Shown here one piece after another: positions 15,631 to 36,841 of a stretch of DNA of 41,870 nt. The DNA is from Oscillospiraceae bacterium. GTDB taxonomy: Bacteria; Bacillota; Clostridia; Oscillospirales; CAG-272. Under the pieces are notes generated by a model that ran no database searches, had not been told where the DNA came from, and saw only the letters and a program-made list of their open reading frames with translations. The stretch spans positions 1 to 41,870 of the forward strand of contig SVRH01000002.1 in assembly GCA_015064925.1 (NCBI GenBank), given 5' to 3'. The stretch's first letter is position 1. Each line of letters opens with the position of its first letter. Made by a program: the position numbers and the translations under genes.

Positions 15631-15664
15631 CAAAAGAGAGCCTTTGTTGAAAGGCTCTCTTTTC
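15631..15664. terminator. bidirectional terminator shared by spoVT and the micro-ORF operon
   Basis: 13-bp stem AAAGAGAGCCTTT-gttg-AAAGGCTCTCTTT (15633-15662), with A/T runs on both sides. Confidence 0.85.
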
Positions 15665-15670
15665 AAGTCA

Positions 15671-15781
15671 TTACCACTGGATGCTGGGTATATCCTCCTC
15701 GTCGCCGGGGCTCAAGGTCAGAATATCTTCCTTAGCAAACACTTCAACAGTTACTTCGGGCATTTCAAAAAACTTCTTCAT
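15671..15781 (-). CDS. unannotated 36-aa micro-ORF, paralog of 34753..34866
   Basis: My reverse-complement translation gives MKKFFEMPEVTVEVFAKEDILTLSPGDEEDIPSIQW*. GAGGAGGA lies about 9 nt upstream. The ORF starts 27 nt after the stop of 15809..17650. It has a conserved paralog with only synonymous changes in the core. Confidence 0.8.
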   Translation of the reverse strand: MKKFFEMPEVTVEVFAKEDILTLSPGDEEDIPSIQW

Positions 15782-15808: not shown

Positions 15809-17650
15809 TCAGTTATTGATGATGTTGCCGTTTTCGTAGACAACAGTTACTGTCTTTCCGTATACGGTCACACCTCCGCCGGTGACAGCGGTGGGTGTTA
15901 CTTCAAATGTAAATCTTCCCTCAGTGGGAACACCTGTGATCGCATATCCGAACAGGTACGAAAAATCTTCGATCAAATGTGCGCCTGTTTCCTCGGAAAC
16001 CGAGCCAACAGTAGTGACAACAGGCTTCATTGTGCCGTTCACTGCACCTCTGAAGGTTTTGTAAACGCTTGTAGCCGCCTTGCTATAGGTCTTATCGGTT
16101 TCTACCACGTGCACAGAAAAGTCGACGTTTTTGTACTCCAGATCGGAAACGCCACCGATGAAACGGATACCGTTATCGCCCTTCTGTTCGCCAACGAGCT
16201 TGATCAGGTTATCGAAGGTTGCTTCGTTATCGTCTGCCCAGGTCTTAATGGTAGCAGATTCATAGCTCTTGATTACAAGGCCTTCGGGAAGAACATACTC
16301 TTCGGTATCTTCCACAAAACAATACAAGAAAGTTTCGCCATAGTCTTCGGTGATCTCAAGATCGGGGGACATGACTGTCAAAGTTTTCAAATTCACACAC
16401 TCGGAAATTGCAAGCTCATGAACAGTTTTCACAGATTCCGGAATGCGAATGTCTGTAACGGTGCTGTTTTCATAGAATACACCATAATATTCATATCGCT
16501 TACCGACCTTCTTTTCTTCGCCGTACAGAGAAACAACGGTATATTCTTTACCGTCAGTACCGATAGTGCCGTCGCCACGGATGGTGGAGGGAATGGTAAC
16601 TTCAGACGCAGATCCGGTATAAAGGATCAGCTCTGCAGTGGCAGCCTCTTCGTCAAGAACCGCCCATTCGTAGGGAAGAACGGTGGAAACAGTGCCGGCC
16701 ACATATTCTTTAACAAACAGCGGAACGGTTTCGGTGGCATCCTCACCGTATGCCTTAAAAGGATCGCTGCCAAAAGGAGTTACAACAAAGGTATCGTCGT
16801 CATCCAGAGGAGTCACAACGGTAAACACCAGTTCAAAGATCCGGAAGTCATCGGTAGGTGCTACTGCATTTTCAAAGCCACCTGCAAAGCCGAGGCTAAA
16901 GGATCTTGCCACGGGGAGCACCGTAACATAAGACTCATTATTGCCCTTGATAGCAAATTCCTTGCTGGCATAGGGATCGATCTCTACCTTATCGGCTGCT
17001 GTTCCGCTTATCGAGAAGGAAAGCTGCGTACAGGAAGCAAGCTTACCGTTGCTGGCGCTGATCATCACAGGCACGCGAATGGTCTTATCACCCACATAAG
17101 CCACAGTGTCGGCCACGCTGACGGTCACGGGATCATAGCGGGTAACATACAGCTTTGCACCCTCGAAGGACACATTTCCGCTGGCGGAGGTGCCGTCTTC
17201 CCAACGCAGAACTTCACTAAAATCTGCGGATACAGAAAGAGACAAATCGTAGACATCTCCGTCCTTGGCGTCCTCGGGAATAGTCACTTTGATGGTAAAA
17301 TACGTTTCGGGGGTGAAGCTTCCCACTCCACACGCAAAACTGAACGAACCATTATCGTTTACAACGCCTGCGCCGCCCCCCTCAGGCATAGGGGTTGCGG
17401 AAATGGCAGTGGTTTGGTTTATCGCTGCTTCGCCGGCAGATATAGTCGCCTGGAACTGCTGAATATTCTTTCCGTTTGTGTTCTTAAAGCCGACCTTTAC
17501 AGCAACCGTTTCACCGGGCTTGCCGTACACGTCCTCCATGACGTAGATCGTCGGCGTAGTATCCTCTGCGGTAGCTGTCAGCGCCGTTGCGGGCACGCAG
17601 GCAAGCACCATCAGAAGAGTTAGCACAAATGAGAGTATGCGTTTTCTCAT
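15809..17650 (-). CDS. secreted multidomain surface protein (cohesin-like modules plus BspA-type LRR region plus C-terminal domain shared with 34887..36770)
   Basis: MRKRILSFVLTLLMVLACVPATALTATA-EDT is a signal peptide. IYVMEDVYGKPGETVAVKVGFKN..FQATIS and VTVSVADTVAYVGDKTIRVPVMISA look cohesin-like. EVTIPSTI..IRIPESVKTVHELAISECVNLKTLTV looks like LRR_5. Domain names are tentative. Confidence 0.75.
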   Translation of the reverse strand: MRKRILSFVLTLLMVLACVPATALTATAEDTTPTIYVMEDVYGKPGETVAVKVGFKNTNGKNIQQFQATISAGEAAINQTTAISATPMPEGGGAGVVNDNGSFSFACGVGSFTPETYFTIKVTIPEDAKDGDVYDLSLSVSADFSEVLRWEDGTSASGNVSFEGAKLYVTRYDPVTVSVADTVAYVGDKTIRVPVMISASNGKLASCTQLSFSISGTAADKVEIDPYASKEFAIKGNNESYVTVLPVARSFSLGFAGGFENAVAPTDDFRIFELVFTVVTPLDDDDTFVVTPFGSDPFKAYGEDATETVPLFVKEYVAGTVSTVLPYEWAVLDEEAATAELILYTGSASEVTIPSTIRGDGTIGTDGKEYTVVSLYGEEKKVGKRYEYYGVFYENSTVTDIRIPESVKTVHELAISECVNLKTLTVMSPDLEITEDYGETFLYCFVEDTEEYVLPEGLVIKSYESATIKTWADDNEATFDNLIKLVGEQKGDNGIRFIGGVSDLEYKNVDFSVHVVETDKTYSKAATSVYKTFRGAVNGTMKPVVTTVGSVSEETGAHLIEDFSYLFGYAITGVPTEGRFTFEVTPTAVTGGGVTVYGKTVTVVYENGNIINN

Positions 17651-17703: not shown

Positions 17704-17732
17704 ATTATATCACGCGAAATTTGCCGTGTCAA
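17704..17732 (-). promoter_or_regulatory. consensus sigma-A promoter of the surface-protein/micro-ORF unit
   Basis: Minus strand reads TTGACA (17727-17732), a 17-nt spacer, then TGA-TATAAT (-10 at 17704-17709). Confidence 0.65.
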
Positions 17733-20346: not shown

Positions 20347-20365
20347 TTTTTCTCGCTCCTTTACC

Positions 20366-20734: not shown

Positions 20735-20798
20735 TCTGTAATATCACTCCTTATTTTGGAATAGGTACTGTCGTACCGTCATGTTTTCGGTCTTGCGA

Positions 20799-20912: not shown

Positions 20913-20968
20913 AGTTTTACACCAGCCCTTTCTTTCGTGGTGGTATTTCTTCGGTAGAACCGAAGTCC

Positions 20969-21208: not shown

Positions 21209-21461
21209 TCATCTCTTGACGGGCGATCGCCGCTCTGATCGCAGAATCACTCAGATTGCCTTCGTTGATCGCGGTCATCAGCGCATCGTCCCGGTGGGAG
21301 AGGAACTTTATATGCTTTAACTTTTTCGCTTTGGGCTTTTCCACCCTTCGTGTCTTACCGTCACAGAGATAGACAATGCCCTTCTCTGCGTCGCTTGCCA
21401 CGATCACATGAACCCGCCCTTTGTCTCTTCCGGAGAGCGACAACACAAACTGTCCCGTCAT
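21174..21461 (-). CDS. small KOW-domain protein (conserved map-infA spacer gene in Clostridia)
   Basis: [51 protein letters not shown].. is KOW-like (G-x-DKG). The call rests on position and motif only. Confidence 0.6.
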
Positions 21462-21471
21462 GTTGCCTCCG

Positions 21472-22224: not shown

Positions 22225-22227
22225 TGC

Positions 22228-22869
22228 TTATTTGCCTTCGCTGTCGATCACGCCGTATACCAACGCAGAGATCTCGTCCACGCTGCCGACGCCTTCGATC
22301 AGCTTCAGTTTACCGGTTCCGGCATAATAATCCTTGATCGGTTCGGTCTGGGTATGGTAGGTCATCAGACGATCCTTGACCACTTCGGGCTGGTCGTCTC
22401 TGCGCAGGGTCAGCGCAGTTCCGTCCTTGTCACAGGTCTTACCGTCCGCAGAGGGATTGTAAAGAACGTGATAGGAGGCTCCGCACTTGTCGCAGACACG
22501 TCTGCCGCTCATGCGTTCAACGATGGTCTCATCGCTGACCTCCAGGCTGATCACAAGGTCGATGCGGACGCCCATTGCGTCCAGCGCCTGTGCCTGGGGA
22601 ACCGTTCTGGGGAAACCGTCGAGGATGAAGCCGTTTTGGCAATCATCTTCAACCAGTCTTTCTTTGATGATACCGATGACTACTTCATCGGGAACGAGTG
22701 CTCCCGCATCGGTATACTGTTTGGCGGCAAGTCCCATGGGAGAGCCGTTCTTAATGGCAGCACGGATGATCGCACCGGTGGAGATGGCGGGAATGCCATA
22801 CTTGGCACTGACCTTTTCAGCCTGAGTGCCCTTGCCGGCGCCGGGTGCGCCAAGAAAAATAATGTTCAT
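22228..22869 (-). CDS. adk: adenylate kinase (Cys3-Asp lid)
   Basis: MNIIFLGAPGAGKGTQA.. P-loop. Lid is CDKCGASYH..GKTCDKDG. Confidence 0.96.
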   Translation of the reverse strand: MNIIFLGAPGAGKGTQAEKVSAKYGIPAISTGAIIRAAIKNGSPMGLAAKQYTDAGALVPDEVVIGIIKERLVEDDCQNGFILDGFPRTVPQAQALDAMGVRIDLVISLEVSDETIVERMSGRRVCDKCGASYHVLYNPSADGKTCDKDGTALTLRRDDQPEVVKDRLMTYHTQTEPIKDYYAGTGKLKLIEGVGSVDEISALVYGVIDSEGK

Positions 22870-22931
22870 AGATTTCTCCTCTATTCGTCGGGACCCTTCG
22901 GAGCGCTTATCGCGCTCCGAGCGAGTCTTTT

Positions 22932-24320
22932 TTATTCAAGGAAGCCCTTGAAGTGACGCAGGGTCATCTGAGATTCGATATCGCGTACGGTTTCGAGTGC
23001 AACACCGATTACGATGAGCAGAGAGTTACCGCTGAACGCGAAGTAGGTCAGCGTGTACCAGTCGGTATAGCCGCCGGCGTTGGTACCGAAGTTGGCACCG
23101 AAGATACCCATGATCATGGGCAGACCGGCTACGATCATCAGGCAGAGAGCGCCGATGAAGGTGATCTTGGAAAGCACACGGCTGATATAGTCAGAGGTGG
23201 GCTTACCGGGACGGATACCGGGCACAAAGCCGCCGTTCTTGCGCAGGTTGTTGGAAACTTCCACAGGATTGAAAGAGATCGCAATGTAGAAGTAAGCAAA
23301 TGCCAACAGCAGCGCCAAGAATACCAGAGTGTAAGCTACGGTATTCTGAGTGAAGTGATTCTTTACAAGACCCCAGAAGCCGGTGTCCACGTTGCTCTTG
23401 CCTGCGAATGCGGCGATGGTAGCAGGAATGGATACGATGGAGCTTGCGAAGATGATGGGCATAACGCCGGTCATGTTGACCTTCAAGGGAAGGTTAGAGG
23501 ACTGACCGCCGTACATCTTTCTGCCGACCACTCTCTTTGCGTACTGAACGGGAATTCTGCGTTCACTGTCGGACATGAACACCATGAAGGCGATCATGGC
23601 GATGATGAATGCCAGACCCAGCACACCGATGATGGTTCCGACCCACCAGTTGTCCATAGGCATGGTAGCTCCGTTTGCTGCGGTGAGCGTACCGCCGATG
23701 GCACGGAAGATCTTAACCAGGTAAGAGGGGAAGGAGACCAGGATGTTGACGAAGAGGATGATGGAGATACCGTTACCGATACCCTTTTCATTGATCTTTT
23801 CGCCCAGCCACATTACCAGAGATGCACCCGCACAGTAGGAAGCGATGATTACAACAGCGGTAAAGAACTTGTGACCCTTGATAGGCTCTACGAAGTCTGC
23901 GCTCATGTTGGTGAGCATCATGTAGTAACCGATCGCCATGATCAGTGCCAGACCAACCGTTACGAAACGGGTGATTTTCTGGATCTTCTTCTTACCGTCC
24001 TCATCCTTAGACATTCTTTCCAGCGCGGGAATTGCCACGCACAGAAGCTGCATAACGATGGAGGAGGTGATATAGGGGGAGATACCCAGAGCAAACAGAG
24101 TTGCCTGGCTCATGGCATCACCCGAGAGCATGTTCATGAAATCCATAATACCCACGTCAAAGCCGGAGCCGATGACTTCGGGGTTAACGAACGGTACAGG
24201 AACCTGAGAACCAAATCTGAACAGTACGATGATCAGCATGGTAAACAGGATTTTTTTACGAATATCTGCAACCGAGAATACGTTGCGGATGGAGGCGATT
24301 GCCTTCTTAATTCCGGACAC
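22932..24320 (-). CDS. secY: preprotein translocase subunit SecY
   Basis: 462 aa, 10-TM profile, ..LFRFGSQVPVPFVNPE.. GTG start 1 nt after the rplO stop, with GAGGTGA upstream. Confidence 0.95.
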   Translation of the reverse strand: MSGIKKAIASIRNVFSVADIRKKILFTMLIIVLFRFGSQVPVPFVNPEVIGSGFDVGIMDFMNMLSGDAMSQATLFALGISPYITSSIVMQLLCVAIPALERMSKDEDGKKKIQKITRFVTVGLALIMAIGYYMMLTNMSADFVEPIKGHKFFTAVVIIASYCAGASLVMWLGEKINEKGIGNGISIILFVNILVSFPSYLVKIFRAIGGTLTAANGATMPMDNWWVGTIIGVLGLAFIIAMIAFMVFMSDSERRIPVQYAKRVVGRKMYGGQSSNLPLKVNMTGVMPIIFASSIVSIPATIAAFAGKSNVDTGFWGLVKNHFTQNTVAYTLVFLALLLAFAYFYIAISFNPVEVSNNLRKNGGFVPGIRPGKPTSDYISRVLSKITFIGALCLMIVAGLPMIMGIFGANFGTNAGGYTDWYTLTYFAFSGNSLLIVIGVALETVRDIESQMTLRHFKGFLE

Positions 24321-24321
24321 C

Positions 24322-24762
24322 TCAGATCACCTCGGTCTTTCCACCGGCCGCTTCAATCTTTTCCTTAGCGGAGGCAGAAAAGACCTTTGCCTGGACGGTA
24401 AGCTTCTTGGTGATTTCACCGCGACCGAGTACCTTCAGTCCGCACAGTTCACGACGGATGATGCCGGCCTCTACCAGAGTTTCCAGGCTGACTACTGCGT
24501 TGTCTTCAAAACCGTTGAGCTGATCCAGGTTGACGATCGCGTAGGTGGTTGCAAATTTGTTGTGGAAACCTCTCTTAGGAAGTTTTCTGTAAAGCGGGAT
24601 CTGACCGCCTTCAAAACCGGGGCGCACACCGCCGCCGGAACGGGCATTCTGACCCTTGTGACCCTTACCGGCAGTCTTGCCGTTACCGGAGCCGGGGCCT
24701 CTGCCCTTACGCCAAGCGGGTGCTGTAGAGCCTTCCGCCGGTTTCAGTTCATGGAGCTTCAT
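24322..24762 (-). CDS. rplO: 50S ribosomal protein L15
   Basis: [33 protein letters not shown].. Confidence 0.97.
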
Positions 24763-24801
24763 GTGTTTTCCTCCTTTTAACTTTTATCCGGTCAAAGCCT
24801 A

Positions 24802-24981
24802 TCAGCAACCGGTTTTTTCTACCTTGACGAGGTGAGCGATTTTTCTGATCTTGCCGGCAACTGCTGCGTTGTCCTGCTGCACGGTGGAATCACCGATGCG
24901 CAGAAGGCCCAGAGACTTAGCGGTTGCTACCTGTGCGGGAATCGCACCGATCAGGCTGTGTACAAGTGTAATCTTCAACAT
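24802..24981 (-). CDS. rpmD: 50S ribosomal protein L30
   Basis: Not in the ORF track (59 aa). My translation is [59 protein letters not shown]. Confidence 0.93.
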
Positions 24982-24995
24982 TGTGCTCGCCCTCC

Positions 24996-25499
24996 TCAGT
25001 TCTTCACTTCTGCTGCGCTCTTGCCGCGGATCGCTGCAACTTCTTCAGCGGTACGCAGAGCTCTCAGACCCTCGAAGGTTGCCTTGACAACGTTTGTAGG
25101 GTTGCTGGAACGCAGGCACTTGGTACGGATATTCTTGATACCTACCATCTCCAGTACGGCACGTACGGTACCGCCGGCGATGATACCGGTACCTTCTGCG
25201 GCGGGCTTCAGCAGAACCTTACCTGCGCCGTAAATACCGGTTACCTCGTGAGGAATGGTGTCACCCTTCAGGGAGACTTCGATCATATTTTTCTTAGCAT
25301 CTTCGATGCCCTTGCGGATAGCGTCCGGTACTTCTGCCGCTTTTCCAAGTCCGTATCCAACGTGGCCATTTCCGTCACCTACGATCATGATCGCGGTGAA
25401 GCGGGCAATACGACCACCCTTAACGGTTTTGGAAACACGGTTGATTACGACGAGCTTTTCCTGAAGTTCAAGCTCTGCCGGATTAAAATTCTTAGCCAT
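24996..25499 (-). CDS. rpsE: 30S ribosomal protein S5
   Basis: ..[38 protein letters not shown].. Confidence 0.97.
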
Positions 25500-25516
25500 G
25501 TTAACCTCCTATTAGA

Positions 25517-25876
25517 TCAGAACTTGAGTCCGCCTTCACGTGCGCCTTCAGCCAAAGAGCTGACACGTCCGTGATACAGGTAGCCGCCGCGGTCGAATAC
25601 GACCTCGGTAATGCCGTTTGCCAGAGCACGCTCAGCGATGAGCGCACCAATCTTCTTTGCAGCTTCTTTGTTGCTGCCGATTCCGGTAAAACCGCTCTCC
25701 TGAGTGGTTGCGGAAACCAGAGTTACGCCCTTCACGTCATCGATGACCTGAGCGCTGATATGTCTCGCGGAACGATACACACAAAGACGAGGTCTTTCTG
25801 CGGTGCCGGAGATCTTGCCTCTGACTCTCTTATGCTTCTTAACGCGTGCAGCGTTAGAATCTTTTCTCGATACCAT
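25517..25876 (-). CDS. rplR: 50S ribosomal protein L18
   Basis: ..[20 protein letters not shown].., ..[12 protein letters not shown].. Confidence 0.97.
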
Positions 25877-25894
25877 GCAATCCCACTCCTTTCG

Positions 25895-26434
25895 TTATTT
25901 ACCGGCCTTGCCGGACTTACGACGAATTACTTCGTCAACGTACTTCACGCCCTTGCCCAGATAGGGTTCAGGAGGTCTCTTCTCACGGATCTGAGCAGCG
26001 ATCTGTCCGACCTTCTGCTTGTCTGCACCGTGAACGATGATGGTGTTGGCATTCGGAACTTCGAATGTGATGCCATCCTTCTCTTCGAAGCTGATACCGT
26101 GGGAGTAGCCCAGAGACAGCTGCAGAACGTTGCCCTGCTTTGCGGCTCTGTAACCGACACCTACGATGTCAAGCTGCTTCTTGTAGCCTTCGGAAACACC
26201 CACAACCATGTTGTTTACCAGAGTTCTGGTCAGGCCGTGGAGGCTCTTGTGTTCCTTTTCATCCGAGGGACGCTCTACCACAACGGTAGCACCTTCCGTG
26301 CGGATGATCATATCGGGGTGCATGGTCTGCACCAAGGTTCCCTTGGGGCCCTTTACGGTAACGACGTTACCTGCTGCAACGGACACCTCAACACCGGCGG
26401 GAACAGTTACTGCAATTCTACCAATTCTAGACAT
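25895..26434 (-). CDS. rplF: 50S ribosomal protein L6
   Basis: [32 protein letters not shown].. Confidence 0.97.
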
Positions 26435-26455
26435 TGTAATTACCTTCCCTTCCGA

Positions 26456-26851
26456 TTACCATACGAAGGCGAGAATTTCGCCGCCTACGTTTGCTTTTCT
26501 TGCCTGCTTATCGGTCATGATTCCCTTAGAGGTGGAAACGATGGCGATACCCAGACCGTTCATAACCTTGGGCATATCCTCGCAGTTGGAGTAGATACGC
26601 AGACCGGGCTTGGAAACACGGCGCAGACCCTGGATGGCCTTCTGCTTACCTACGTACTTGAGGGTGATGCGGATGATACCCTGCTTGCCGTCCTCGATTA
26701 CCTGATAGCCCTTTACGTAGCCTTCAGCTACCAGGATATCAGCGATGGACTTCTTCATGTTGGATGCGGGAACATCCACGGTTTCGTGCTTTGCGTTGTT
26801 CGCGTTGCGGATTCTTGTGAGCATATCCGCAATTACGTCAGAAATTTGCAT
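26456..26851 (-). CDS. rpsH: 30S ribosomal protein S8
   Basis: ORF 26456..26857 ([20 protein letters not shown]..). GGAGG at 26860-26864 is only 2 nt from the first ATG but 8 nt from the ATG at 26849-26851, which I prefer. Confidence 0.95.
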
Positions 26852-27037
26852 ATTCATATCCTCCTTTATGCAAGTTTGTTTGTCTTGCTGCCTGCACCGC
26901 GGCTTAGCTTTCGCCGCAGGCCCTTCGGACCCACCGTCATTGACGCGCCGAATTTGCAGGCTGCCCGCCGATGGTTAAATCTTAATATTTCCTATCGGCA
27001 TCCGGAGATTCGGATCAATAATTTGTTTGTTTCCCGA

Positions 27038-27223
27038 TTACCAGGAAGCCTTCTTCACACCGGGAATCTCGCCCTTGTATGCCAGCTCGCGGAAGCAGAT
27101 ACGGCAGATGCCGAACTTACGCATATAAGCATGAGGACGACCGCAGATCTTGCAACGGTTGTATTCTCTGGTAGAGTACTTCTGGGGAGCCTGCTGCTTC
27201 AGGATCATTGCCTTCTTTGCCAT
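27038..27223 (-). CDS. rpsN: 30S ribosomal protein S14 type Z (zinc-binding)
   Basis: 61 aa: ..[23 protein letters not shown].. ends in W. Confidence 0.97.
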
Positions 27224-27241
27224 TTTACAGTTCCTCCTTCA

Positions 27242-27781
27242 TTACTTTGCGAAAGGTGCGCCCATGAGGGTCAGCAGCTCTTTTGCTTCTTCGTCAGTGT
27301 TAGCGGTGGTAACGAATACGATATCCATACCACGCAGCTTTTCTACCTTGTCATACTCGATTTCGGGGAAGATCAACTGTTCCTTCAGGCCCAGTGCATA
27401 GTTGCCGCGGCCATCGAAGGCGTTGGGGTTGATACCCTTGAAGTCACGAACGCGGGGCAGAGCCAGGTTGAACAGTCTGTCCATGAATTCGTACATCTTT
27501 TCGCCGCGAAGGGTTACCTTCACGCCGATCTTCATGCCCTGACGGAGCTTGAAGTTTGCAACCGACTTTCTGGCATAGGTGGGAACGGCCTTCTGACCGG
27601 TGATAGCGGTGATATCGGTGATCACGCTGTCGATCGCCTTGCTGTTTTCCTTTGCGTCGCCGACACCAACGTTGATCACGATCTTGTCGAACTTAGGAAT
27701 CTGCATTACGCTCTTGTAAGCGAATTTGTTCATGAGGGCGGGAGCAACCTCGGATTTGTACATATCTCTGAGTCTAGACAT
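27242..27781 (-). CDS. rplE: 50S ribosomal protein L5
   Basis: [41 protein letters not shown].. Confidence 0.97.
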
Positions 27782-27795
27782 TTTCGAGTTCCTCC

Positions 27796-28110
27796 TTAGT
27801 CAAACTTGTGGCCGCAGCCCTTACCGGAGCATACGCGAACCTTTTTGTCGTTGATGATTTCCACATGGGTACGAACACCCTTCTTGCAGTTGGGGCAGTA
27901 CAGAGCCACCTTATCGGCGTAGATTGCACCTTCTACTTCCAGGATGCCACCGGTCTCGCCCTGACGGCGGGGCTTGGCATGCTTCTTCACAACGTGAACC
28001 TTGCTTACGATTACCTTGCCTTCTTCGGGAGATACGGCAATTACCTTACCGATCTTGCCCTTGTCAACACCGGAAATAACGATTACGTTATCATCTCTTC
28101 TAATAGACAT
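27796..28110 (-). CDS. rplX: 50S ribosomal protein L24 (with unusual C-terminal Cys4 cluster)
   Basis: [26 protein letters not shown].. is a KOW motif. The C-terminus is CPNC-x18-CSGKGC. Confidence 0.95.
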
Positions 28111-28124
28111 ATTTCGTTACCTCC

Positions 28125-28493
28125 TTACAGTACTTCGGGAGCCAGAGACAGGATCTTCAGATAATCCTTCTCACGGAGCTCTCTTGCTACCGGCCCAAAG
28201 ATACGGGTACCCTTGGGGTTCTTGTCTTCCTTGATGATAACTGCTGCGTTATCATCGAAACGAATGTAAGAGCCGTCGGCACGCTTGATGCCCTTTACGC
28301 TTCTTACGATTACAGCCTTAACAACGTCGCCCTTCTTCACCTGTCCGCCGGGAGCTGCCTTCTTAACGGTAGCAACTACCACGTCGCCGATATTGGCATA
28401 TCTTCTGCCGGTACCGCCGAGCACGCGGATGCACATGAGTTCCTTGGCGCCTGTGTTGTCGGCAACTTTCATATAAGATTGCTGTTGAATCAC
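28125..28493 (-). CDS. rplN: 50S ribosomal protein L14
   Basis: [27 protein letters not shown].. Confidence 0.97.
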
Positions 28494-28539
28494 AGTGCTA
28501 ATCCTCCTTATTCAATACGGACTTTGTCGTACCTACTGA

Positions 28540-28806
28540 TTATTTAGCTTTTTCGATAACGGTTACCAGTCTCCATCTCTTGGTCTTGGACAGGGGTCTG
28601 GTCTCCATTACTTCTACGGTATCGCCCACGGTGCATTCGTTGTTTTCATCGTGTGCGTGAATCTTGATGGTTCTGTTCATAACCTTACCAAAGAGGGGAT
28701 GCTTTACCTTGTCGGCAATGGCAACCACGATGGTCTTGTCCATCTTGTTGGACACAACCTTACCTACTCTGGTCTTACGCAGATTGCGTGCATTTACTTC
28801 ACTCAT
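28540..28806 (-). CDS. rpsQ: 30S ribosomal protein S17
   Basis: ..[27 protein letters not shown].. Confidence 0.97.
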
Positions 28807-28824
28807 GACTTATCTCCTTTCGGT

Positions 28825-29013
28825 TTACGCGTTCTTTTCCTGAAGAACGGTCATCACACGTGCGATATCTTTCTTCACAGCGGTGATCTTGTGGGGATTG
28901 TCGAGCTGGTTGATGGCAAGCTGGAAACGGAGATTGAACAGTTCTTCCTTGAGTTCCTTGAGCTTGGCTTCCAGCTGTTCGGAAGTCAGTTCTCTGATTT
29001 CTTTTGCTTTCAC
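28825..29013 (-). CDS. rpmC: 50S ribosomal protein L29
   Basis: [31 protein letters not shown].. Confidence 0.97.
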
Positions 29014-29016
29014 TGC

Positions 29017-29439
29017 TTATACCTCCTCGGTTTGTTCCTTGGCAACAAACTTGCACTTGATGGGCAGCTTGTGGGAAGCAAGACGCATAGCTTCCTTAGC
29101 CACATCAGGCGCAACGCCGTCCATCTCAAACATGATTCTGCCGGGCTTGACAACTGCTACCCAGTATTCGGGCGAACCCTTACCGGAACCCATTCGGGTT
29201 TCAGCAGGCTTTTCTGTGATGGGCTTATCGGGGAAAATCTTGATCCATACCTGACCGCCACGCTTGATGTAACGGGTCATTGCGATACGGGCTGCTTCGA
29301 TCTGGTTGCTGGTGATCCATGCGGGCTCCAGTGCAACGAGGCCGTAGGAACCGTTGGTAATGGTGTTACCTCTGGTTGCCTTTCCCTTCAGTCTTCCGCG
29401 CTGAACTCTGCGGAATTTAACTCTCTTGGGCATTAACAT
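29017..29439 (-). CDS. rplP: 50S ribosomal protein L16
   Basis: [25 protein letters not shown].. Confidence 0.97.
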
Positions 29440-30266
29440 TATTTATTGCCCCCTTCCTTGTTCGCGGGCTTGTTGCCGCCGAAACGGCGTTCGCCGCCGG
29501 GACGACGGTCGCCTGCGGGACGACGGTCACCATTGTTTCTGCGGTCGCCTCTGCGATCGTTTCTGCGATCGCCTCTGCGATCGTTTCTCTGGGGAACCTG
29601 TTCCTGAGGACGGTAGGTGGTGAAGTGCTTCTTCACGTCCGGCAGAACTTCGCCCTTGAAGATCCATACCTTAACACCGATCTTACCGTAGGTGGTGTTT
29701 GCTTCCCAGAAGCCGTACTCGATGTCTGCACGGATGGTCTGCAGCGGGATGGTACCCTCGTGATAGTGTTCGGTTCTTGCGATTTCAGCACCGCCCAGAC
29801 GGCCGGATACTGCAACCTTGATACCCTTCGCACCCAGTCTCATGGTGCGACCGATTGCCTGCTTCATAGCACGGCGGAAGGAAGTTCTCTTTTCCAGCTG
29901 CAGCGCGATGTTCTCTGCTACCAGCTGAGCGTTCATGTCGGGAACCTTTACTTCCATTACGTTGATAGCAACGGGCTTACCAACGATTGCTTCTACTTCT
30001 GCACGCAGCTTTTCGATTTCAGCACCGCCGCGACCGATCACCAGACCGGGCTTTGCGCAGTGGATGAATACCTTAACTCTGTGAGCATCTCTTTCGATCT
30101 CAATCTTGGGGATGCCTGCTTCCTGCAGCTTGGACTTCAGATATTTTCTGACTTTGTTATCAGATACGAGAGTGTCGCCGAATGTTTCATCGGATGCGAA
30201 CCATCTCGAATCCCAGTTCTTAATAACTCCCACACGAAGACCGTGAGGATTTACTTTCTGACCCAT
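29439..30266 (-). CDS. rpsC: 30S ribosomal protein S3 with about 58-aa Arg/Asp/Gly-rich C-terminal extension
   Basis: [23 protein letters not shown].. is the core S3. The tail is ..[48 protein letters not shown]. Confidence 0.96.
29499..29585. repeat. short tandem repeats encoding the GDRR-type tail of S3
   Basis: gggacgacggtc occurs at 29499 and 29517. tctgcgRtcgYY occurs four times across 29538-29585. Confidence 0.8.
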
Positions 30267-30286
30267 GAATCTTTAACCTCCTTTTC

Positions 30287-30622
30287 TTAGTCTCTTTCTT
30301 TTACCGCGATGGTTACGTGGCTGGTTCTTTTCAGAATGCGGTCTGCGCTTCCTCTTGCTCTGGGCATCATTCTTTTCAGAGTGGGGCCGGGGCATACAAA
30401 GCATTCAGATACATACAGCTTGCTCTTATCCATGCCGAAGTTGTTTTCAGCATTTGCAACTGCAGAATTCAGAAGCTTGATAAGATATTCAGAAGCTGAC
30501 TTGTGGGTGTTCTTCAGAATACCCATTGCCTCATCTGCGTTCTTGCCGCGGATCAGGTCCAGCACAATGCACACCTTGCGGGGAGAAATTCTAGCATATT
30601 TCAGATACGCTCTTGCTTCCAT
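30287..30622 (-). CDS. rplV: 50S ribosomal protein L22
   Basis: MEARAYLKYARISPRKVCIVLDLIRGK.. Confidence 0.97.
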   Translation of the reverse strand: MEARAYLKYARISPRKVCIVLDLIRGKNADEAMGILKNTHKSASEYLIKLLNSAVANAENNFGMDKSKLYVSECFVCPGPTLKRMMPRARGSADRILKRTSHVTIAVKERD

Positions 30623-30665
30623 TTGTAATTGCCTCCCTTCGCCTTATTTGCGAAATTCTACTTTC

Positions 30666-30947
30666 TTATTTACCGTTGTTGGATGTTTTGGAACCTGCGT
30701 GACCCTTGAAGGTTCTGGTGGGTGCGAATTCACCCAGCTTGTGTCCCACCATGTCTTCGGTGACATATACCGGAACGTGCTTCTTGCCGTCGTGTACGGC
30801 AATGGTGTGTCCCACAAATTCCGGGAAAATAGTGGAAGCTCTCGACCAGGTCTTGATCACTCTTTTCTCGCCGGCGTTGTTCATAGCCACAATGCGGCCA
30901 AACAGCTTCGCTTCGACAAAAGGTCCTTTTTTAAGGCTTCTGCTCAT
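30666..30947 (-). CDS. rpsS: 30S ribosomal protein S19
   Basis: [15 protein letters not shown]..,..[29 protein letters not shown].. Confidence 0.97.
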
Positions 30948-30965
30948 ATCATTTGTCTCCTTCCA

Positions 30966-31796
30966 TTACTTTCCGTTTCTGCGTTTTACGATGAACTTAT
31001 CGGTTCTTGCCTTCTTGTTACGGGTCTTGTAACCCAGAGCAGGCTTGCCCCAAGGTGTAACAGGGCCGGGACGACCGATGGGGGATCTACCTTCACCACC
31101 ACCGTGGGGGTGATCACAGGGGTTCATTACGGAACCGCGAACGGTAGGACGGATACCCTTATGACGAGTCTTACCTGCCTTACCAACCTTGACCGTATCG
31201 TGCTCGATGTTGCCAATCTGACCGATGGTTGCCTTGCAATCCAGACGAACCAGACGAACCTCACCGGAGGGAAGACGAACCTGAGCCATGCCGTTTGCCT
31301 TTGCCATCAGCTGCGCTGCAGCACCTGCGGAACGAACCAGCTGGCCGCCCTTGCCGGGGTAGAGCTCGATGTTGTTGATCATGGTACCAACGGGGATGTT
31401 GGCGATGGGCAGAGTGTTACCGGGCTTGATGTCAGCATCGGCTGCGCTGTAGATCACGTCGCCGTCGGTCAGACCAACGGGAGCCAGAATGTAGCTTCTG
31501 GTGCCATCTTCGTATTCTACCAGTGCAATGTAAGCGGTTCTGTTGGGGTCGTACTCAACGCCGATTACCTTTGCTGCGCCTTCAGTCTGACGCTTGAAGT
31601 CGATAATTCTGTACTTCTTCTTGTTACCGCCGCCGTGATGACGAACGGTGATGCGACCGTAGCTGTTACGGCCTGCCTTGCTTTTCAGGGTAACTGTCAG
31701 CTTCTTTTCGGGGCTGAACTTGGTTACTTCCTCGAAGGAAGGAACGGTCATGCCTCTTCTACCGGGAGTGGTAGGCTTATAAATCTTTACTGCCAT
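30966..31796 (-). CDS. rplB: 50S ribosomal protein L2
   Basis: [17 protein letters not shown].., ..[15 protein letters not shown].. Confidence 0.97.
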
Positions 31797-31813
31797 GTTA
31801 CTTCACTCCTTCC

Positions 31814-32110
31814 TTACATCATACCCTCGAAGAACTCGATGGTCTTGGAGTCAGCGGTCAGAGTAACGATCGCTTTCTTCCATGCGGAGGTGTAACCCTC
31901 GTTCATGCCGAGTCTCTTGGGCTTTCTCTTCATGTTGATTACGTTGACGCTGGCAACCTTTACCTTGAAGGCTTCCTCAACCGCCTTAGCGATCTCGGGC
32001 TTGGTTGCGCTCTTTGCTACCTCGAAGGTGTACTTCTTTTCGGTAGCGATTCTTGCCATACTGTCCTCGGTAATAACGGGACGGATGATAATATCGTAAG
32101 ATGTTTTCAT
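31814..32110 (-). CDS. rplW: 50S ribosomal protein L23
   Basis: [24 protein letters not shown].. Confidence 0.96.
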
Positions 32111-32823
32111 GCTCCGTATACCTCCTCGAGCTTCTTGACAGCGGCTTCGGTGATGATCACCTTTTCAGCGTTCAGGATCTCGTAAACGTTGATCGTGCTG
32201 CTGAGGGTGGTGGTTGCGGTGGGGATGTTTGCGCAGCTCTTTACTACCTTTGCATCTACTGCATCGGTTACGATCAGGGTCTTGGCAGCTACCTTGTGCT
32301 CTGCACTCTTCACTGCGCTTACCTTTTCGCCTGCTTCGTTCTTTTCCCAAACCTTATAGTTGTTGGAAACAGTCTTGGTTGCACCCAGAGCTTCCAGCAT
32401 AGCGACCATGGTCTTGGTCTTGAACTCGGTTGCCTGGATGGAGTCAACAACCACCAGCGCGTTGTTTGCTACCTTATCGGACAGTGCGCTGACCATTGCT
32501 ACCCGCTTAGTCTTCTTGTTGAGATTGATGCGATAGGTTCTGGGCTTGGGGCCGAGAGCGATACCGCCGTGTGTCCACTGGGGAGCTCTGGTAGAACCCT
32601 GTCTTGCTCTACCGGTTCCCTTCTGTCTCCAGGGTTTCTTACCGCCACCGGAAACTTCGGTGCGGGTCAGAGTGGACTGAGTACCCTGTCTCTGATTCAT
32701 CAGATAGGCTCTGACTGCGGAATGAAGAACTGCGCCGTTTACTTCTGCGCCGAACACTTTGTCAGACAGTTCGATCTGGCCGACTTCCGCGCCTTGCATA
32801 TTCAAAATCTTTACGTTAGGCAT
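32107..32823 (-). CDS. rplD: 50S ribosomal protein L4 (about 30-aa internal insertion)
   Basis: ..[27 protein letters not shown].. The ORF is 238 aa, against about 207 aa remembered for Bacillus L4. Confidence 0.96.
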
Positions 32824-32841
32824 CGTGTGTCCTCCTTCCGA

Positions 32842-33471
32842 TTATGCTTTTACAGCGTTGCGGATGAATACGATACCGCCCTTGGCACCGGGAACGGCAC
32901 CCTTTACGGCGATCAGATTCTTTTCCGCGTCGATTTTTACTACTTCCAGGTTCAGAACGGTGACCTGTTCGTTACCGTACTGACCGGGCATCTTCTTGTT
33001 CTTAAAGATTCTCGCAGGGTCGATAACACCCATAGAACCGGGCTGACGGTGGATAGGGCCGGTACCGTGAGTCATGCGAAGGATCGCAGTTCCCCATCTC
33101 TTAACAGTACCCGAATATCCGCGACCTTTGGTCACACCGGTAATGTCGACCTTTTCACCTGCCGCAAAGATGTCAGCGGTGACGGTTTCGCCAATGCTGT
33201 AACCGGAGATGTCCTCCAGACGGAATTCCTTCAGGTGCTTCTTGGGAGCACTGCCTGCCTTCTTGAAGTGACCTGCAGCAGGCTTGTTTGTGTGTTTTGC
33301 AGCCAGATCCTGGAAGCCCAGCTGAATGGCTTCGTAGCCGTCGGTCTCCACAGTCTTGATCTGTGTTACCGCGCAGGGACCTGCCTCAATTACGGTTACG
33401 GGAATGGCATTTCCCACTTCATCGAAGATCTGAGTCATACCGATCTTCTTGCCAATGATACCCTTTTTCAT
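32842..33471 (-). CDS. rplC: 50S ribosomal protein L3
   Basis: [33 protein letters not shown].. Confidence 0.97.
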
Positions 33472-33570
33472 GATTTTGTTCCTCCTGTTTTAGTTATTGG
33501 TTGACGGACGGGTACCCGCCAACATGACATAAAACTTTCTGTCGCGTGGTAGAAAGCGTAAGCTGCTTGA

Positions 33571-33882
33571 TCAAAGCTTAACTTCCAGTTCCACACCGGC
33601 GGGAAGTTCGAGACCGGAAATAGCATCCACAACCTTCTGTGTGGGCTTAACGATGTCAATCAGTCTCTTGTGAGTGCGAAGCTCAAACTGTTCGCGGCTG
33701 TCCTTATACTTGTGGACTGCACGCAGGATGGTTACGACTTCCTTTTCGGTGGGAAGCGGAATGGGACCGGATACGGTAGCGCCGTTTCTCTTGGCTGCTT
33801 CCACGATCTTTTCTGCCGCCTGATCGATCAGGGTGTGGTCATAGCTCTTCAGCTTGATTCTCAGTGTTTCCTTAACTGCCAC
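33571..33882 (-). CDS. rpsJ: 30S ribosomal protein S10
   Basis: GTG start (33880-33882), with GGAGG 9 nt upstream. [35 protein letters not shown].. Confidence 0.97.
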
Positions 33883-34134
33883 TTTGTTTTGCCTCCTTTT
33901 ATATTTTGGGGCGTGGGAACCGCTCTACGACCGCATTTTCTCAATACACTTTCCCGTGTGTTTCACGGTGCTTCCTTAAGAAAACCGAATTTCGGGGCAT
34001 GGGTTCACTGCTACGAAATCCGGGTCGAATGGATAGGTTCATTCTTTGTTCGCCCGTTCTACGGACATACTCCACGAAAATTCCCTGCGGCACTGCGCAG
34101 CAACCTTTCGCTTCATCGCACATCAAGCCTTGCC

Positions 34135-34422: not shown

Positions 34423-34671
34423 ATGAAATCTACCGGTATCGTTCGCCCCATTGACCAACTCGGCAGAGTCGTACTGCCCAAGGAACTGCGTGAAAACCTC
34501 GGCATCAGCCCCAAGGACAGTCTGGAGGTTTTCGTTGAAAACGAAAAGATCATCCTCAAGAAGTACGCCCCCAACTGCTGCTTCTGCGGCAACGACGAGG
34601 ATATGAACCTTTATCAGGGCAAGCTGATCTGCAAGGCGTGCATCCGCAAGCTCGCAGCCCTCGCTGAATAA
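34423..34671 (+). CDS. abrB: AbrB-family transition-state regulator (clostridial type with Cys-rich C-terminus)
   Basis: MKSTGIVRPIDQLGRVVLPKELRENLGISPKDSLEVFVENEKIILKKYAPNCCFCGN...KLICKACIRKL. GGAGAGG RBS. Confidence 0.9.
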   Translation: MKSTGIVRPIDQLGRVVLPKELRENLGISPKDSLEVFVENEKIILKKYAPNCCFCGNDEDMNLYQGKLICKACIRKLAALAE

Positions 34672-34710: not shown

Positions 34711-34748
34711 AAACAAAAAGCAGACGGATTTTCCGTCTGCTTTTGTTT
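34711..34748 (-). terminator. rho-independent terminator of the F5/8-protein/micro-ORF unit
   Basis: GCAGACGG-aaaat-CCGTCTGC stem (34720-34740), followed on the minus strand by TTTTTGTTTG. Sits 5 nt after the micro-ORF stop. Confidence 0.8.
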
Positions 34749-34752: not shown

Positions 34753-34866
34753 TTACCACCCGATCTCGGGGATATTCGTAGAGTCTCCGGGGCTCAGTGT
34801 CAGAATGTCCGCTTCCTCAAAAAGAGTTACGTTTACTTCAGGAGCTTCAAATACTTTCTTTTCCAT
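34753..34866 (-). CDS. unannotated 37-aa micro-ORF, paralog of 15671..15781
   Basis: My reverse-complement translation gives MEKKVFEAPEVNVTLFEEADILTLSPGDSTNIPEIGW*. AAAGGAGA lies 8 nt upstream. The ORF starts 20 nt after the stop of 34887..36770. Confidence 0.8.
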   Translation of the reverse strand: MEKKVFEAPEVNVTLFEEADILTLSPGDSTNIPEIGW

Positions 34867-34886
34867 GTTTACAGTCTCCTTTCAAA

Positions 34887-36770
34887 TCAACCCTGCACGA
34901 ACATCTGCCACTCAGAGAACTGAACCACGTCCAGCCCCACGCCATCCTTGCCGTTGTTGGAAAGGACCGCCAGTTTATAGTAGCCGTATGCGGTGGTGTT
35001 TTCAAATTCGTAGGTGTACAGCATATTTCTGGCGGGCATATCCTCGTCGGTACGCTTATCCAGCTCTACCCAGTTTTCGCCGTCGGTGGAGCCGTAGAGG
35101 ATCCAGTCCTTAGGGTCTCTGGGATCGTGGTCGTTGGCAGAACCGATCTTGTACATATTGACAGCTGCAGCCTCTTCCAGCTGTACGGAAACCCACAGAG
35201 AGGTCACGTGTGCAACGCATGCCTTGGTGCCGAGATCGCCGTCGAACAGCTTGGCAAGACCTTCGCCGCCCTCAACGGCAGCGTCGCCTGCCACGGTTGC
35301 GGTATTCACGGCAACCTTGTTTTCCTTGGGTGCTTCTGCGCTGGAAACGAACAGCTGCCATTCGGAGAACTGAACCACGTCCATCCCCACGCCGTCCTTG
35401 CCGTTGTTGGAGGTAACAGCCAGCTTGTAGTAGCCGTATGCGGTGGTGTTTTCGAAGTTATAGGTGTACAGCGTGTTTCTTGCGGGCAGATCTTCGTTGG
35501 TGCGCTTGTCCAGCTCTACCCAGTTTTCGCCGTCGGTGGAGCCGTAGAGGATCCAGTCCTTAGGGTCTCTGGGATCGTGGTCGTTGGCAGAACCGATCTT
35601 ATAAGTATTGACCGCAGTGGGCTTCTTCAGCTGAACGGAAACCCACAGAGAGGTCACGTTGACGATGCAAGCCTTGGAGCCGAGCTCGTTGTCAAACAGC
35701 TTGCCAACGCCCTGGCTACCGTCCACAGCCGCGTCGCTCTGAATGGTGGATGCGTCCACTTCAACCTGTGTTTCCACGATGTCGGAGGGAACGTCCAGCG
35801 CAAACAGCTGCAGCTCCTGGAGCTGGAGAATGTCATTGTCCCAAGGGTCGATGCCGAAGTTTGCATCGATTACCAGCTTGTAGAACTGATATGCGGTAGC
35901 GTTGTCAAGGGTGTAAACATAAGTGCCGTTTCTTTCAGCAAAGGGAGCTTCGTTGCTCTGAGTATCCAGAACTGCCCATTCGTTGCCGTCAGCGGAACCA
36001 TACAGAGTCCAGCTCTTGGGGTCACGTACAGGCTGGTCTTCGCCGCTGATCATAACGTATTCAACAAGGGTTTCAGCCTGATCCAGTTCCCAAGCGATTT
36101 CCAGAGGTCTGGTGTCGAATTCGCACATCTTTTCGCTGAGGCTGTTATCGAAGATCTTTGCAATCTTGGAAAGGTCACCGTTGGTGGTGATCTTGTTCGC
36201 CTTTACGTATACCTGCTTGGTAGCAACAGGTTCGGGATCAACGGGAGGCTCGGGATCAACGGGAGGCTCGGGATCAACGGGGGGTTCGGGCTCAACGTAC
36301 TTTTCGGCGGTTACAACGCCGTCCTCGACGCTGACGCTCAGCTTGGCAGCCTCGCCGGTCAGGGTTTCTTCACCGTTTACTGCCACGGGGGTCACTTCAA
36401 ACACGTATTCGCCATCGGTGATGCCAACAAGGGCAAAGCCGTACAGATAATCGTGTTCCACAACGATTGCGTCACCTTGTGCTTCCTTGGTGGTGGCAAC
36501 TGCCTCTTCACCACTGAACAGGGTGTTGAACACCTTGGTGGTGCTGAAGCTCTTTTCCTTGGTCGCGTCACCGGTGACGGTCAAGGTAAAACCAATGGAG
36601 TCATACGAAAGATTGTCGGTGTAGCCGATCAGTCTCAGCGCACGTTCTCCCTCTTGCATACCTGCAAAGCCGAAATCGACGGTCGTTTCCTCTGCGGAAG
36701 CCACAAACGCAGCGGGCAGCAGGGACAGAACCATCAAAACGGCAAGTACAAGTGTAATGGATCTTCTCAT
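34887..36770 (-). CDS. secreted protein with N-terminal domain shared with 15809..17650, PEPPVD linker and three F5/8 type C (discoidin/CBM32-like) domains
   Basis: MRRSITLVLAVLMVLSLLPAAFVASA-EET is a signal peptide. Three repeats follow the pattern ..KLFDN/G.LG.K.C..........W..V.L......N.Y.I.SANDHDPRDPKDWILYGS.DGENWVELD.., typical of discoidin domains. Confidence 0.8.
   Translation of the reverse strand: MRRSITLVLAVLMVLSLLPAAFVASAEETTVDFGFAGMQEGERALRLIGYTDNLSYDSIGFTLTVTGDATKEKSFSTTKVFNTLFSGEEAVATTKEAQGDAIVVEHDYLYGFALVGITDGEYVFEVTPVAVNGEETLTGEAAKLSVSVEDGVVTAEKYVEPEPPVDPEPPVDPEPPVDPEPVATKQVYVKANKITTNGDLSKIAKIFDNSLSEKMCEFDTRPLEIAWELDQAETLVEYVMISGEDQPVRDPKSWTLYGSADGNEWAVLDTQSNEAPFAERNGTYVYTLDNATAYQFYKLVIDANFGIDPWDNDILQLQELQLFALDVPSDIVETQVEVDASTIQSDAAVDGSQGVGKLFDNELGSKACIVNVTSLWVSVQLKKPTAVNTYKIGSANDHDPRDPKDWILYGSTDGENWVELDKRTNEDLPARNTLYTYNFENTTAYGYYKLAVTSNNGKDGVGMDVVQFSEWQLFVSSAEAPKENKVAVNTATVAGDAAVEGGEGLAKLFDGDLGTKACVAHVTSLWVSVQLEEAAAVNMYKIGSANDHDPRDPKDWILYGSTDGENWVELDKRTDEDMPARNMLYTYEFENTTAYGYYKLAVLSNNGKDGVGLDVVQFSEWQMFVQG
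34901..35800. repeat. tandem duplication, 2 x about 450 bp (second and third discoidin domains)
   Basis: 34901.. aligns with 35351.. at offset 450. 35061-35150 is identical to 35511-35600 (90 bp). The flanks are more diverged. Confidence 0.85.
36228..36299. repeat. 4 x 18-bp tandem repeat encoding the (PEPPVD)n linker
   Basis: aggYtcgggatcaacggg three times, plus one degenerate copy. Confidence 0.85.
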
Positions 36771-36812: not shown

Positions 36813-36841
36813 ATACTAACACGATTTTTCCTATTTGTAAA
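36813..36841 (-). promoter_or_regulatory. possible sigma-A promoter of the F5/8-protein unit
   Basis: Minus strand reads TTTACA (36836-36841), a 17-nt spacer, then TGT-TAGTAT (-10 at 36813-36818). Confidence 0.4.

Follow-up and report, generated by a model that had tools for sequence, protein, structure and literature searches.

The 41,870-nucleotide stretch of DNA analysed here (positions 1 to 41,870 of contig SVRH01000002.1, Oscillospiraceae bacterium, assembly GCA_015064925.1; referred to below as the window) carries two copies of a very short open reading frame (ORF), micro-ORF A and its paralogue micro-ORF B. Both copies are the second and last cistron of a unit composed of a promoter, a large secreted-protein gene (partner gene A or B), the micro-ORF, and a terminator (Table 1). 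Judged from its sequence, the first gene of each two-gene operon is predicted to encode a large Sec-exported lectin- or adhesin-like protein. On the reverse complement, micro-ORF A is read from ATG to TAA, has a strong ribosome-binding site, and starts 20 nt after the TGA (34889..34887) of partner gene A. An earlier note, made from the letters alone, had described this ORF, a Shine-Dalgarno sequence 8 nt from it, and the 20-nt gap, all of which were there on re-reading. The hairpin directly behind micro-ORF A appears to be a bidirectional terminator, in common with a convergent AbrB gene. In the encoded peptide, residues 1 to 25 are conserved and leader-like and are followed by a 12-residue variable tail with Trp as the last residue; the window peptides A and B contain no Cys. 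The exact sequence of peptide A was also found as a called gene on at least 24 metagenome contigs, with the same synteny.

Table 1. Positions of the two micro-ORFs, their operons, and neighbouring features in the window
Feature	Position	Strand	Description
Micro-ORF A	34753..34866	−	37 codons and stop; peptide MEKKVFEAPEVNVTLFEEADILTLSPGDSTNIPEIGW
Shine-Dalgarno sequence of micro-ORF A	34875..34882	−	AAAGGAGA; 8 nt before the ATG at 34866
Terminator after micro-ORF A	34716..34744	−	GC-rich hairpin and T-run, directly 3′
Partner gene A	34887..36770	−	627 aa; signal peptide, unnamed domain of approximately 105 aa, PEPPVD linker, F5/8 type C (discoidin) modules
Approximately 105-aa domain in partner A	36372-36668	−	Residues 35-133, N-terminal
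Promoter-like site of partner gene A	36841..36813	−	
Micro-ORF B, paralogue of A	15671..15781	−	36 codons and stop; peptide MKKFFEMPEVTVEVFAKEDILTLSPGDEEDIPSIQW
Intrinsic terminator hairpin after micro-ORF B	15632..15663	−	Closes the two-gene transcription unit
Partner gene B	15809..17650	−	613 aa; signal peptide; weak cohesin and LRR_5 matches
Approximately 105-aa domain in partner B	15878-16198	−	Residues 485-591, C-terminal
Promoter of partner gene B	17732..17704	−	Perfect TTGACA-17-TATAAT
AbrB-like regulator	34423-34671	+	82 aa; convergent with micro-ORF A
SpoVT with SpoVT_C domain	15074-15619	+	AbrB-fold; convergent with micro-ORF B
S10-Clostridia ribosomal-protein leader	34050-34125	−	Rfam 42.9 bits, above gathering score; ahead of the S10 operon
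Ribosomal-protein super-operon	~18259-33882	−	

The two window peptides shared 23 identities over 37 columns with one gap in a MAFFT alignment (64% identity); the hand alignment in the earlier note had the same columns and gap but counted 22 identities. The DNA differences between A and B in the DILTLSPGD block (GAC/GAT, ACA/ACC, CTG/TTG, and GGA/GGC) and in the PEV block (CCT/CCC) were all synonymous, as that note had reported, and the DNA similarity of the two copies was confined to the ORF, ending at its borders. The note had claimed purifying selection on a translated product and had proposed an estimate of dN/dS over more homologues. This claim was borne out by a Nei-Gojobori analysis of six homologues (window A, window B, two copies from locus L001, L003, and L083). 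In the first 25 codons, the proportion of synonymous differences (pS, 0.36 to 1.0) was far above that of nonsynonymous differences (pN, 0.03 to 0.27); window A and L003 differed by 12 synonymous and 2 nonsynonymous changes. The tail was relaxed, with omega values from approximately 0.1 to more than 1, mostly 0.4 or higher. Among 78 distinct homologous cores, all four codons were in use for each of the invariant residues P, V, and T, and six codons, from both the TCN and the AGY boxes, were in use for the invariant S. Every homologue inspected had an intact ORF with a Shine-Dalgarno sequence, and an AAAGGAG-type ribosome-binding site (RBS) preceded nearly all homologues. Nucleotide-level conservation and interrupted ORFs, which the note had named as the outcomes contrary to its claim, were both absent among the homologues inspected.

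Because the ORF is very short, was missed or left unnamed by annotation, and is immediately adjoined by a terminator hairpin, we considered whether it is a chance ORF, a conserved RNA, or a terminator-associated element instead of a gene. However, conservation follows codons and not nucleotides, intact RBS-bearing homologues number in the hundreds, the similarity of A and B stops at the ORF borders, and no Rfam family matched the site of micro-ORF A or B. A chance ORF or a conserved RNA element was ruled out on these grounds, and a nongenic origin of any kind is scarcely conceivable. Micro-ORF A is, with near certainty, a genuine and selected gene of its family.

This family is large, unannotated, and found mostly in Clostridia. 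When 1.84 billion representative proteins were searched with a profile made from the closest sequences, 116 clusters at 50% identity were matched, all of 33 to 71 aa, and most of these matches began at or near residue 1. No fusion of a family peptide to a larger protein was found among these representatives. A degenerate DNA pattern (F-E-x-P-x3-V-x2-F-x3-D-[IV]-x-T-x-S), which fixes Phe at position 6 so that Tyr variants are under-sampled, matched 77 stretches in 596 Gb of species-representative genomes, compared with approximately 2 expected by chance in our own estimate. Almost all matches were in Clostridia (Oscillospiraceae, Faecousia, Flemingiibacterium, Acutalibacteraceae, Eubacterium coprostanoligenes ATCC 51222, and some Lachnospiraceae and Erysipelotrichaceae), a distribution that agrees with the Oscillospiraceae and Lachnospiraceae scope suggested in the earlier note. 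Several metagenome-assembled genomes (MAGs) carried 6 to 8 family copies (at least 8 in JAZQGR and 6 in JAGASS). In the members, of 33 to 55 aa, the consensus N terminus, M-[EK]-K-x-[FY]-E-x-P-E-[VLI]-x-V-x-x-F-x-x-x-D-[IV]-[IL]-T-x-S, is followed by a hypervariable acidic tail in which Gly, Asp, Glu, and Pro abound. The window-type tail has [ILVF]-P-x-[IVF]-x-W at its C-terminal end, and other tail types end in DWNEW, FPGFNPFGE, NQTPYG, or P-C-[IFVG]. Thr23 and Ser25 were invariant in the 16 closest sequences and also in the 78 distinct DNA cores, where the invariance is partly forced by the search pattern.

Members of the family are named only "hypothetical protein," which is also the RefSeq label of the E. 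coprostanoligenes member. Twelve members had no match in Pfam-A or NCBIfam at E values up to 10, and a literature search on sequence fragments (e.g., DVITTS), on SynChlorMet/ScmC, and on peptides that are made ribosomally and then modified posttranslationally (RiPPs) of Oscillospiraceae retrieved no paper on the peptide family. A protein search with A and B concatenated returned almost only 40-aa variants, and the database seems to be poor in proteins shorter than 40 aa. The window-type subfamily (DILTLS...W) was found in none of the species-representative genomes, though the pattern matches it; its members all came from metagenome assemblies, and the genome collection may lack a genome of this lineage. 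In an AlphaFold2 model, the lone peptide was an extended, unfolded chain (pLDDT, 72; pTM, 0.22), which would be expected of a leader whose folding takes place on a partner. Chance matches (E ≥ 0.13) were all that the peptide profile gave against PDB sequences.

The micro-ORFs of the family are closely tied to genes for large secreted proteins, and this pairing rule is the strongest unexplained fact of the study. Among 84 micro-ORFs, 65 had enough upstream sequence to judge, and 51 of the 65 (approximately 80%) started at most 130 nt past an ORF of 200 aa or more (often 600 to 2,200 aa) on the same strand, mostly with a gap of 5 to 27 nt. A signal-peptide-like N terminus, scored with a crude rule on mechanically called ORFs, was present in 26 of 30 complete upstream proteins, compared with 7.8% of the other ORFs in the same loci (binomial P = 3e-25). 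Two window-type relatives of other synteny showed the same arrangement, with P0022 located 15 nt behind a 521-aa F5/8C protein and P0024 behind a 459-aa protein, and L001 carried two large-protein/micro-ORF pairs in tandem. In E. coprostanoligenes ATCC 51222 (locus L041), the protein encoded upstream has 772 aa. Pfam families matched by the upstream proteins were F5/8C, LRR_5, CBM35, LamG, GH2, DUF6528, cohesin, and Flg_new. A domain common to all upstream proteins was considered and rejected; BLAST clustering gave four unrelated groups, with no Pfam family in common.

The C termini of the upstream proteins were also compared. Many unrelated proteins end in an amphipathic motif, ..ALYDYxxAAxxY.. 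or ..LYDLNEA.., and another group ends in ..GY[MI]IY..G...T[IV]YS... Such motifs were seen in the upstream proteins of L009, L016, L021, L025, L035, L037, L056, L070, L076, L172, L178, and other loci, and they may be recognition or docking elements. The amphipathic helix motif is absent from the window partner proteins.

Family members are also physically linked to a maturation cassette and to radical SAM (rSAM)/SPASM genes, an association with modifying enzymes for which the earlier note had proposed a test. At 12 genome loci, the micro-ORF adjoined a PqqD-family protein (PF05402, with E values of 7e-17 and 5e-18 for the two proteins tested; the other loci were assigned by local phmmer/hmmsearch). 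The same loci encoded an HprK/ScmC-like P-loop protein of approximately 239 aa, with weak matches to ScmC and HprK-related kinases, a soluble signal-peptidase-I-like (SpI-like) protein of approximately 155 aa with a GTSMxPT motif, an NTP_transf_5 protein (PF14907), and an MsbA/HepA-like ABC exporter. The gene order in L045 was NTP_transf_5, ABC exporter, kinase-like, PqqD, SpI-like, micro-ORF, and rSAM. Eleven Cys-tailed cousins had an rSAM/SPASM gene 30 to 130 nt downstream, and all 11 encoded proteins matched PF04055; the best NCBIfam matches of these proteins were ScmE, PapB, and CefB, all under the cut-offs. The closest solved relatives of the cassette's PqqD-type RiPP recognition element (RRE) were the lasso B1 proteins TfuB1 and TbiB1. 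Among 80 other proteins from 25 cassette loci, neither Asn_synthase nor transglutaminase was recurrent among the top 25 of 92 Pfam families.

The linkage was seen from the enzyme side as well. A metagenome search seeded with the kinase, in which the peptide was not used, gave more than 600 matching stretches, and 15 of the best 80 carried 1 to 5 family micro-ORFs. Except in L171, in which no kinase gene was labelled, these micro-ORFs were on the strand of the kinase gene and preceded it. In 12 to 13 of the 15 loci, a large protein, mostly with a signal peptide, ended right before the micro-ORF. The order in L177 was a 998-aa protein, micro-ORF, 284-aa LRR_5 protein, kinase, RRE, SpI-like peptidase, exporter, and NTP transferase. 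In locus L161 (4813-5690, + strand), five tandem family micro-ORFs with differing tails immediately preceded the kinase-like gene, in the form of a classic multi-precursor RiPP array, and they had no large protein ahead of them. The cassettes often lay amid genes of capsule or exopolysaccharide (EPS) type, including Wzz, CpsD-like, CpsB, Bac_transf, SLH, and sortase B. Loci L036, L040, and L048 showed a series of micro-ORF, SLH-domain protein, kinase-like, PqqD, SpI-like, Wzz, CpsD-like ATPase, CpsB phosphatase, and class B sortase genes, with the cassette thus inside a cell-envelope/capsule locus.

To link the window peptides to the cassette, we used a profile of 20 cassette- or rSAM-linked peptides, none of window type. 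Against the 1,099 stop-to-stop ORFs of at least 20 aa in the window, this profile recovered exactly the two micro-ORFs (E values of 2e-9 and 2e-11), and the next-best ORF had an E value of 1.2. The cassette-linked peptide of L142, MKREYAKPEFEVNEFELEDILTVSIGDDPDGGDTGWY, which was found via the kinase, was 42% identical to window A over the full length. Both have an S-x-G-D block and GW near the C terminus, at which the L142 peptide has one residue more. In addition, MAG JAFUNJ contained a cassette-linked copy (L034) together with a near-identical orphan copy (L007) behind another large protein, which makes the use of a single cassette in trans plausible.

The cassette resembles a recently described system. 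Linear polyphosphorylated peptide (LPP) clusters are defined by a five-gene core, LppK/B/S/D/N, and lie within capsule loci (Popov et al., Nat Commun 2026, PMC13381572). They have no macrolactam cyclase, and the product stays linear (PMC13381572). LPP precursors of 35 to 200 aa have a conserved N terminus, YxxPxVLxHQxIxFETxxS, and a variable C terminus; the RRE binds the YxxP stretch of the leader, in which a hydrogen bond of the Tyr hydroxyl is used, LppK polyphosphorylates Ser3 of the core, and the SpI-like LppS cleaves after Thr-1 with assistance of the RRE (PMC13381572). That work was centred on Bacilli, with the system characterised in Paenibacillus, and left the final product and its biological role open (PMC13381572). 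Relatives of the window peptide adjoin the same five-gene core (HprK-like kinase, discrete PqqD RRE, SpI-like protein, MsbA-like exporter, and NTP transferase), and both cluster types are often found in capsule/EPS-type neighbourhoods. The five-gene core is absent from the window and present in the 12 genome and 15 metagenome loci of relatives with the same leader. The precursors are likewise short. An aromatic-x-x-P-x-V motif lies in the conserved N terminus, a conserved Thr and Ser are found close to where leader and core meet, and the C terminus is hypervariable. Our SpI-like profile also matches SCH01704.1 of an uncultured Ruminococcus (E = 1.4e-51), a protein in the supplementary SpI list of the LPP paper that belongs to a sequence similarity network cluster other than the one studied (PMC13381572).

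On this comparison, we take the window peptides, with moderate confidence, to be orphan LPP-type RiPP precursors that would depend for maturation in trans on a cassette at another site of the genome. The discrete PqqD-family protein would bind the [FY]xxPx[VLI] stretch as a beta-strand, and the HprK-like kinase would phosphorylate the conserved Ser, for which Ser25 of the invariant T-x-S is the candidate. The cytoplasmic SpI-like protease would cut off the leader near Thr23, and the MsbA-like ABC exporter would then release the tail of approximately 14 residues, LSPGDSTNIPEIGW, which the NTP_transf_5 enzyme could possibly decorate further. The phosphorylation, the cleavage site, the export, and the maturation in trans in this scheme are inferred by analogy with the Paenibacillus LPP system, and any functional tie between the peptide and the upstream protein would likewise be an inference.

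Several observations weigh against the assignment to LPP-type precursors. Profiles of the kinase, RRE, SpI-like protein, NTP_transf_5, ABC exporter, and rSAM had no match in the 41.9-kb window, so that A and B could belong to the LPP type only as orphans, with maturation presumably in trans. The closest window-type relatives sampled (L001-L005, L083, and L094-L099), located on short contigs, showed the partner-protein context only. A recognisable family micro-ORF was present in only 15 of the best 80 kinase loci (of more than 600); the linkage is therefore not one-to-one, and precursors of other types are served by the cassette as well. When reconstructed from the primers of the paper, the type LppA leader, MEENTKREQKLYARPMVLSQQPVRFET|AQS, scored approximately 0 bits with the family profile beyond [YF]xxPxV. 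The spacing from Pro to Thr is 14 residues in the window peptides versus 12 in LPP, the junction is T-x-S in the family versus T-x-x-S in LPP, and the window peptides have Phe, which is common in the family, where LPP leaders have Tyr.

Other differences concern the setting. The family is mostly found in Clostridia (Oscillospiraceae and relatives), whereas LPPs were described from Bacilli, and it has many dispersed orphan copies per genome, most of them behind a large secreted-protein gene. Some family clusters add an rSAM/SPASM maturase for the Cys-tailed members. Three such hybrid clusters, each an LPP-type core with rSAM/SPASM, were L045 (174-6047), L056 (2-4250), and L051 (1735-6735), whose peptides have P-C-[IFG] at the end of the tail. 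Neither Clostridia nor radical SAM is mentioned in the main text of the LPP paper, nor are orphan precursors or proteins that are secreted or at the surface (PMC13381572). Relative to that text, the Clostridial precursor family, the pairing with secreted proteins, and the rSAM hybrid clusters are new.

The coupling to the upstream gene could also be explained if the peptide were an unmodified, stand-alone micro-protein working with its upstream neighbour, with the resemblance to RiPP leaders due to common ancestry only. It could, for example, help with assembly or secretion from the cytoplasm, act as a partner in fixed stoichiometry, or regulate the exported protein. The pairing counts (51/65 for a large upstream ORF and 26/30 for signal-peptide-like upstream proteins), their recurrence in the kinase-seeded loci and in window-type relatives of other synteny, and the clean promoter, large gene, micro-ORF, and terminator units of both window copies with no maturase nearby all speak for this explanation. 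However, the partner proteins lack a common domain, which makes a specific binding interface hard to picture, and they are exported, whereas the peptide has no signal peptide. Moreover, conservation within the peptide is highest in the RRE-type motif and T-x-S, the cassette-linked members show 42% identity over the whole length, and fusions to a larger protein are absent from the 1.84 billion representatives. An unmodified helper is thus unlikely, though to be taken seriously. A quite improbable alternative is that the peptide is an exported, otherwise unmodified signalling pro-peptide, a pheromone whose Trp-ending tail is sensed and reports expression of the partner. The conserved N terminus and variable C terminus, the [ILVF]-P-x-[IVF]-x-W kept at the end of window-type tails, the tail omega near 1, which fits diversifying specificity, and the ABC exporter and peptidase of the associated cassette are all consistent with such a role. 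On the other hand, no receptor or regulator (RRNPP-type or adjoining histidine kinase) is conserved beside the micro-ORFs, the adjacency of AbrB and SpoVT is limited to syntenic close relatives, and the cassette also has a kinase and a nucleotidyltransferase, which imply modification.

The leader begins with the [Y/W/F]xxPx[L/V/I] motif used by lasso RREs, and this motif, the lasso B1 proteins as nearest solved relatives of the cassette RRE, and the 11 Cys-tailed cousins with rSAM/SPASM genes would suit a lasso-peptide or radical-SAM (sacti-/ranthipeptide-like) precursor. The leader of paeninodin-type lasso precursors (PbaA/PadeA), M-K-K-x-aromatic-x-x-P-E-[LV]-E-V, is similar, the family profile can be aligned with 14 residues of the PbaA leader MKKEWLKPELEVLDVNQTM, and these systems likewise have a B1-type RRE and tailoring by a kinase (PadeK, HPr-kinase-like) and a nucleotidyltransferase (PsmN). 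In contrast, no macrolactam cyclase or B2 cysteine protease is recurrent in the family loci (top 25 of 92 families, 80 proteins), and Phe or Tyr takes the place of Trp as the aromatic residue. Lasso precursors have Gly, Ala, Ser, or Cys at core position 1, Asp or Glu at positions 7 to 9, and Thr at position −2. A cut after T-x would leave the core SPGDSTNIPEIGW, with N, I, and P at positions 7 to 9. A lasso precursor was rejected because no cyclase or B2 protease recurs among those top 25 families and the tail holds no ring-forming Asp or Glu. An rSAM substrate was rejected because the window peptides lack Cys and the window lacks rSAM; Cys in the core with an adjoining rSAM/SPASM gene was found only with the Cys-tailed cousins. 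Taken together, a precursor of either class is very improbable for the window peptides.

Further systems share single traits with the family. Prochlorosins have many ProcA precursor genes scattered in the genome and one ProcM. The present family is also multi-copy, with a conserved leader, a hypervariable core, and most copies far from the maturation locus; the chemistry and enzymes of prochlorosins are not those of the family cassette, and to our knowledge their precursors are not systematically paired with one class of neighbour gene. The 239-aa kinase-like protein has its weak best matches in ScmC (TIGR04249) of the SynChlorMet system and in HprK-related kinase A, and the rSAM/SPASM proteins weakly best-match TIGR04250 (ScmE), PapB, and CefB, as in SynChlorMet, ranthipeptide, and sactipeptide systems. 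All of these scores were far under the curated cut-offs and indicate resemblance only. Unlike ranthipeptides and sactipeptides, the window peptides have neither Cys nor a neighbouring rSAM.

In the surroundings of the two loci, the micro-ORF operons flank the ribosomal-protein super-operon, one on each side. The remaining genes of the window encode GtrII, a pyridoxal phosphate (PLP) enzyme, SpoVT, AbrB, an FKBP protein, an M23 peptidase, and MnmG. For the family as a whole, a functional link of the micro-ORFs to the AbrB and SpoVT regulators was rejected, as L001-L005, which are syntenic, were the only loci of relatives with this adjacency. Partners A and B have one domain of approximately 105 aa in common (32% identity, E = 7e-12). 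No Pfam model matches this domain; it also occurs in proteins of L001 and L002, and four profile iterations found nothing beyond close relatives. In partner A, a proline-rich linker with three PEPPVD repeats follows the first domain, and the last two F5/8 type C modules (34887-35800, − strand) are near-identical, with KIGSANDHDPRDPKDWILYGSTDGENWVELDKRT occurring twice, suggesting a recent internal duplication.

A large, unannotated, mostly Clostridial precursor family thus appears to feed machinery like that of LPPs, a class of RiPPs described only in 2026 (PMC13381572). Since most of the family genes are dispersed orphans, genome mining centred on clusters would miss them. In bacteria of the gut and rumen, the hybrid radical SAM/SPASM clusters are candidate sources of new peptide chemistry. 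The pairing with secreted proteins and the capsule-locus setting of the cassettes point to a role at the cell surface. One rather doubtful extension of this idea is that the peptide is a dedicated partner of the upstream secreted protein and not a free natural product. Its processed, phosphorylated or glycosylated, and exported tail might tether, mark, or regulate the cognate surface protein on a capsule or cell-wall polymer. If true, Clostridia would have a way of displaying surface proteins by means of a peptide adaptor, and LPP-type RiPPs would gain a biological function.

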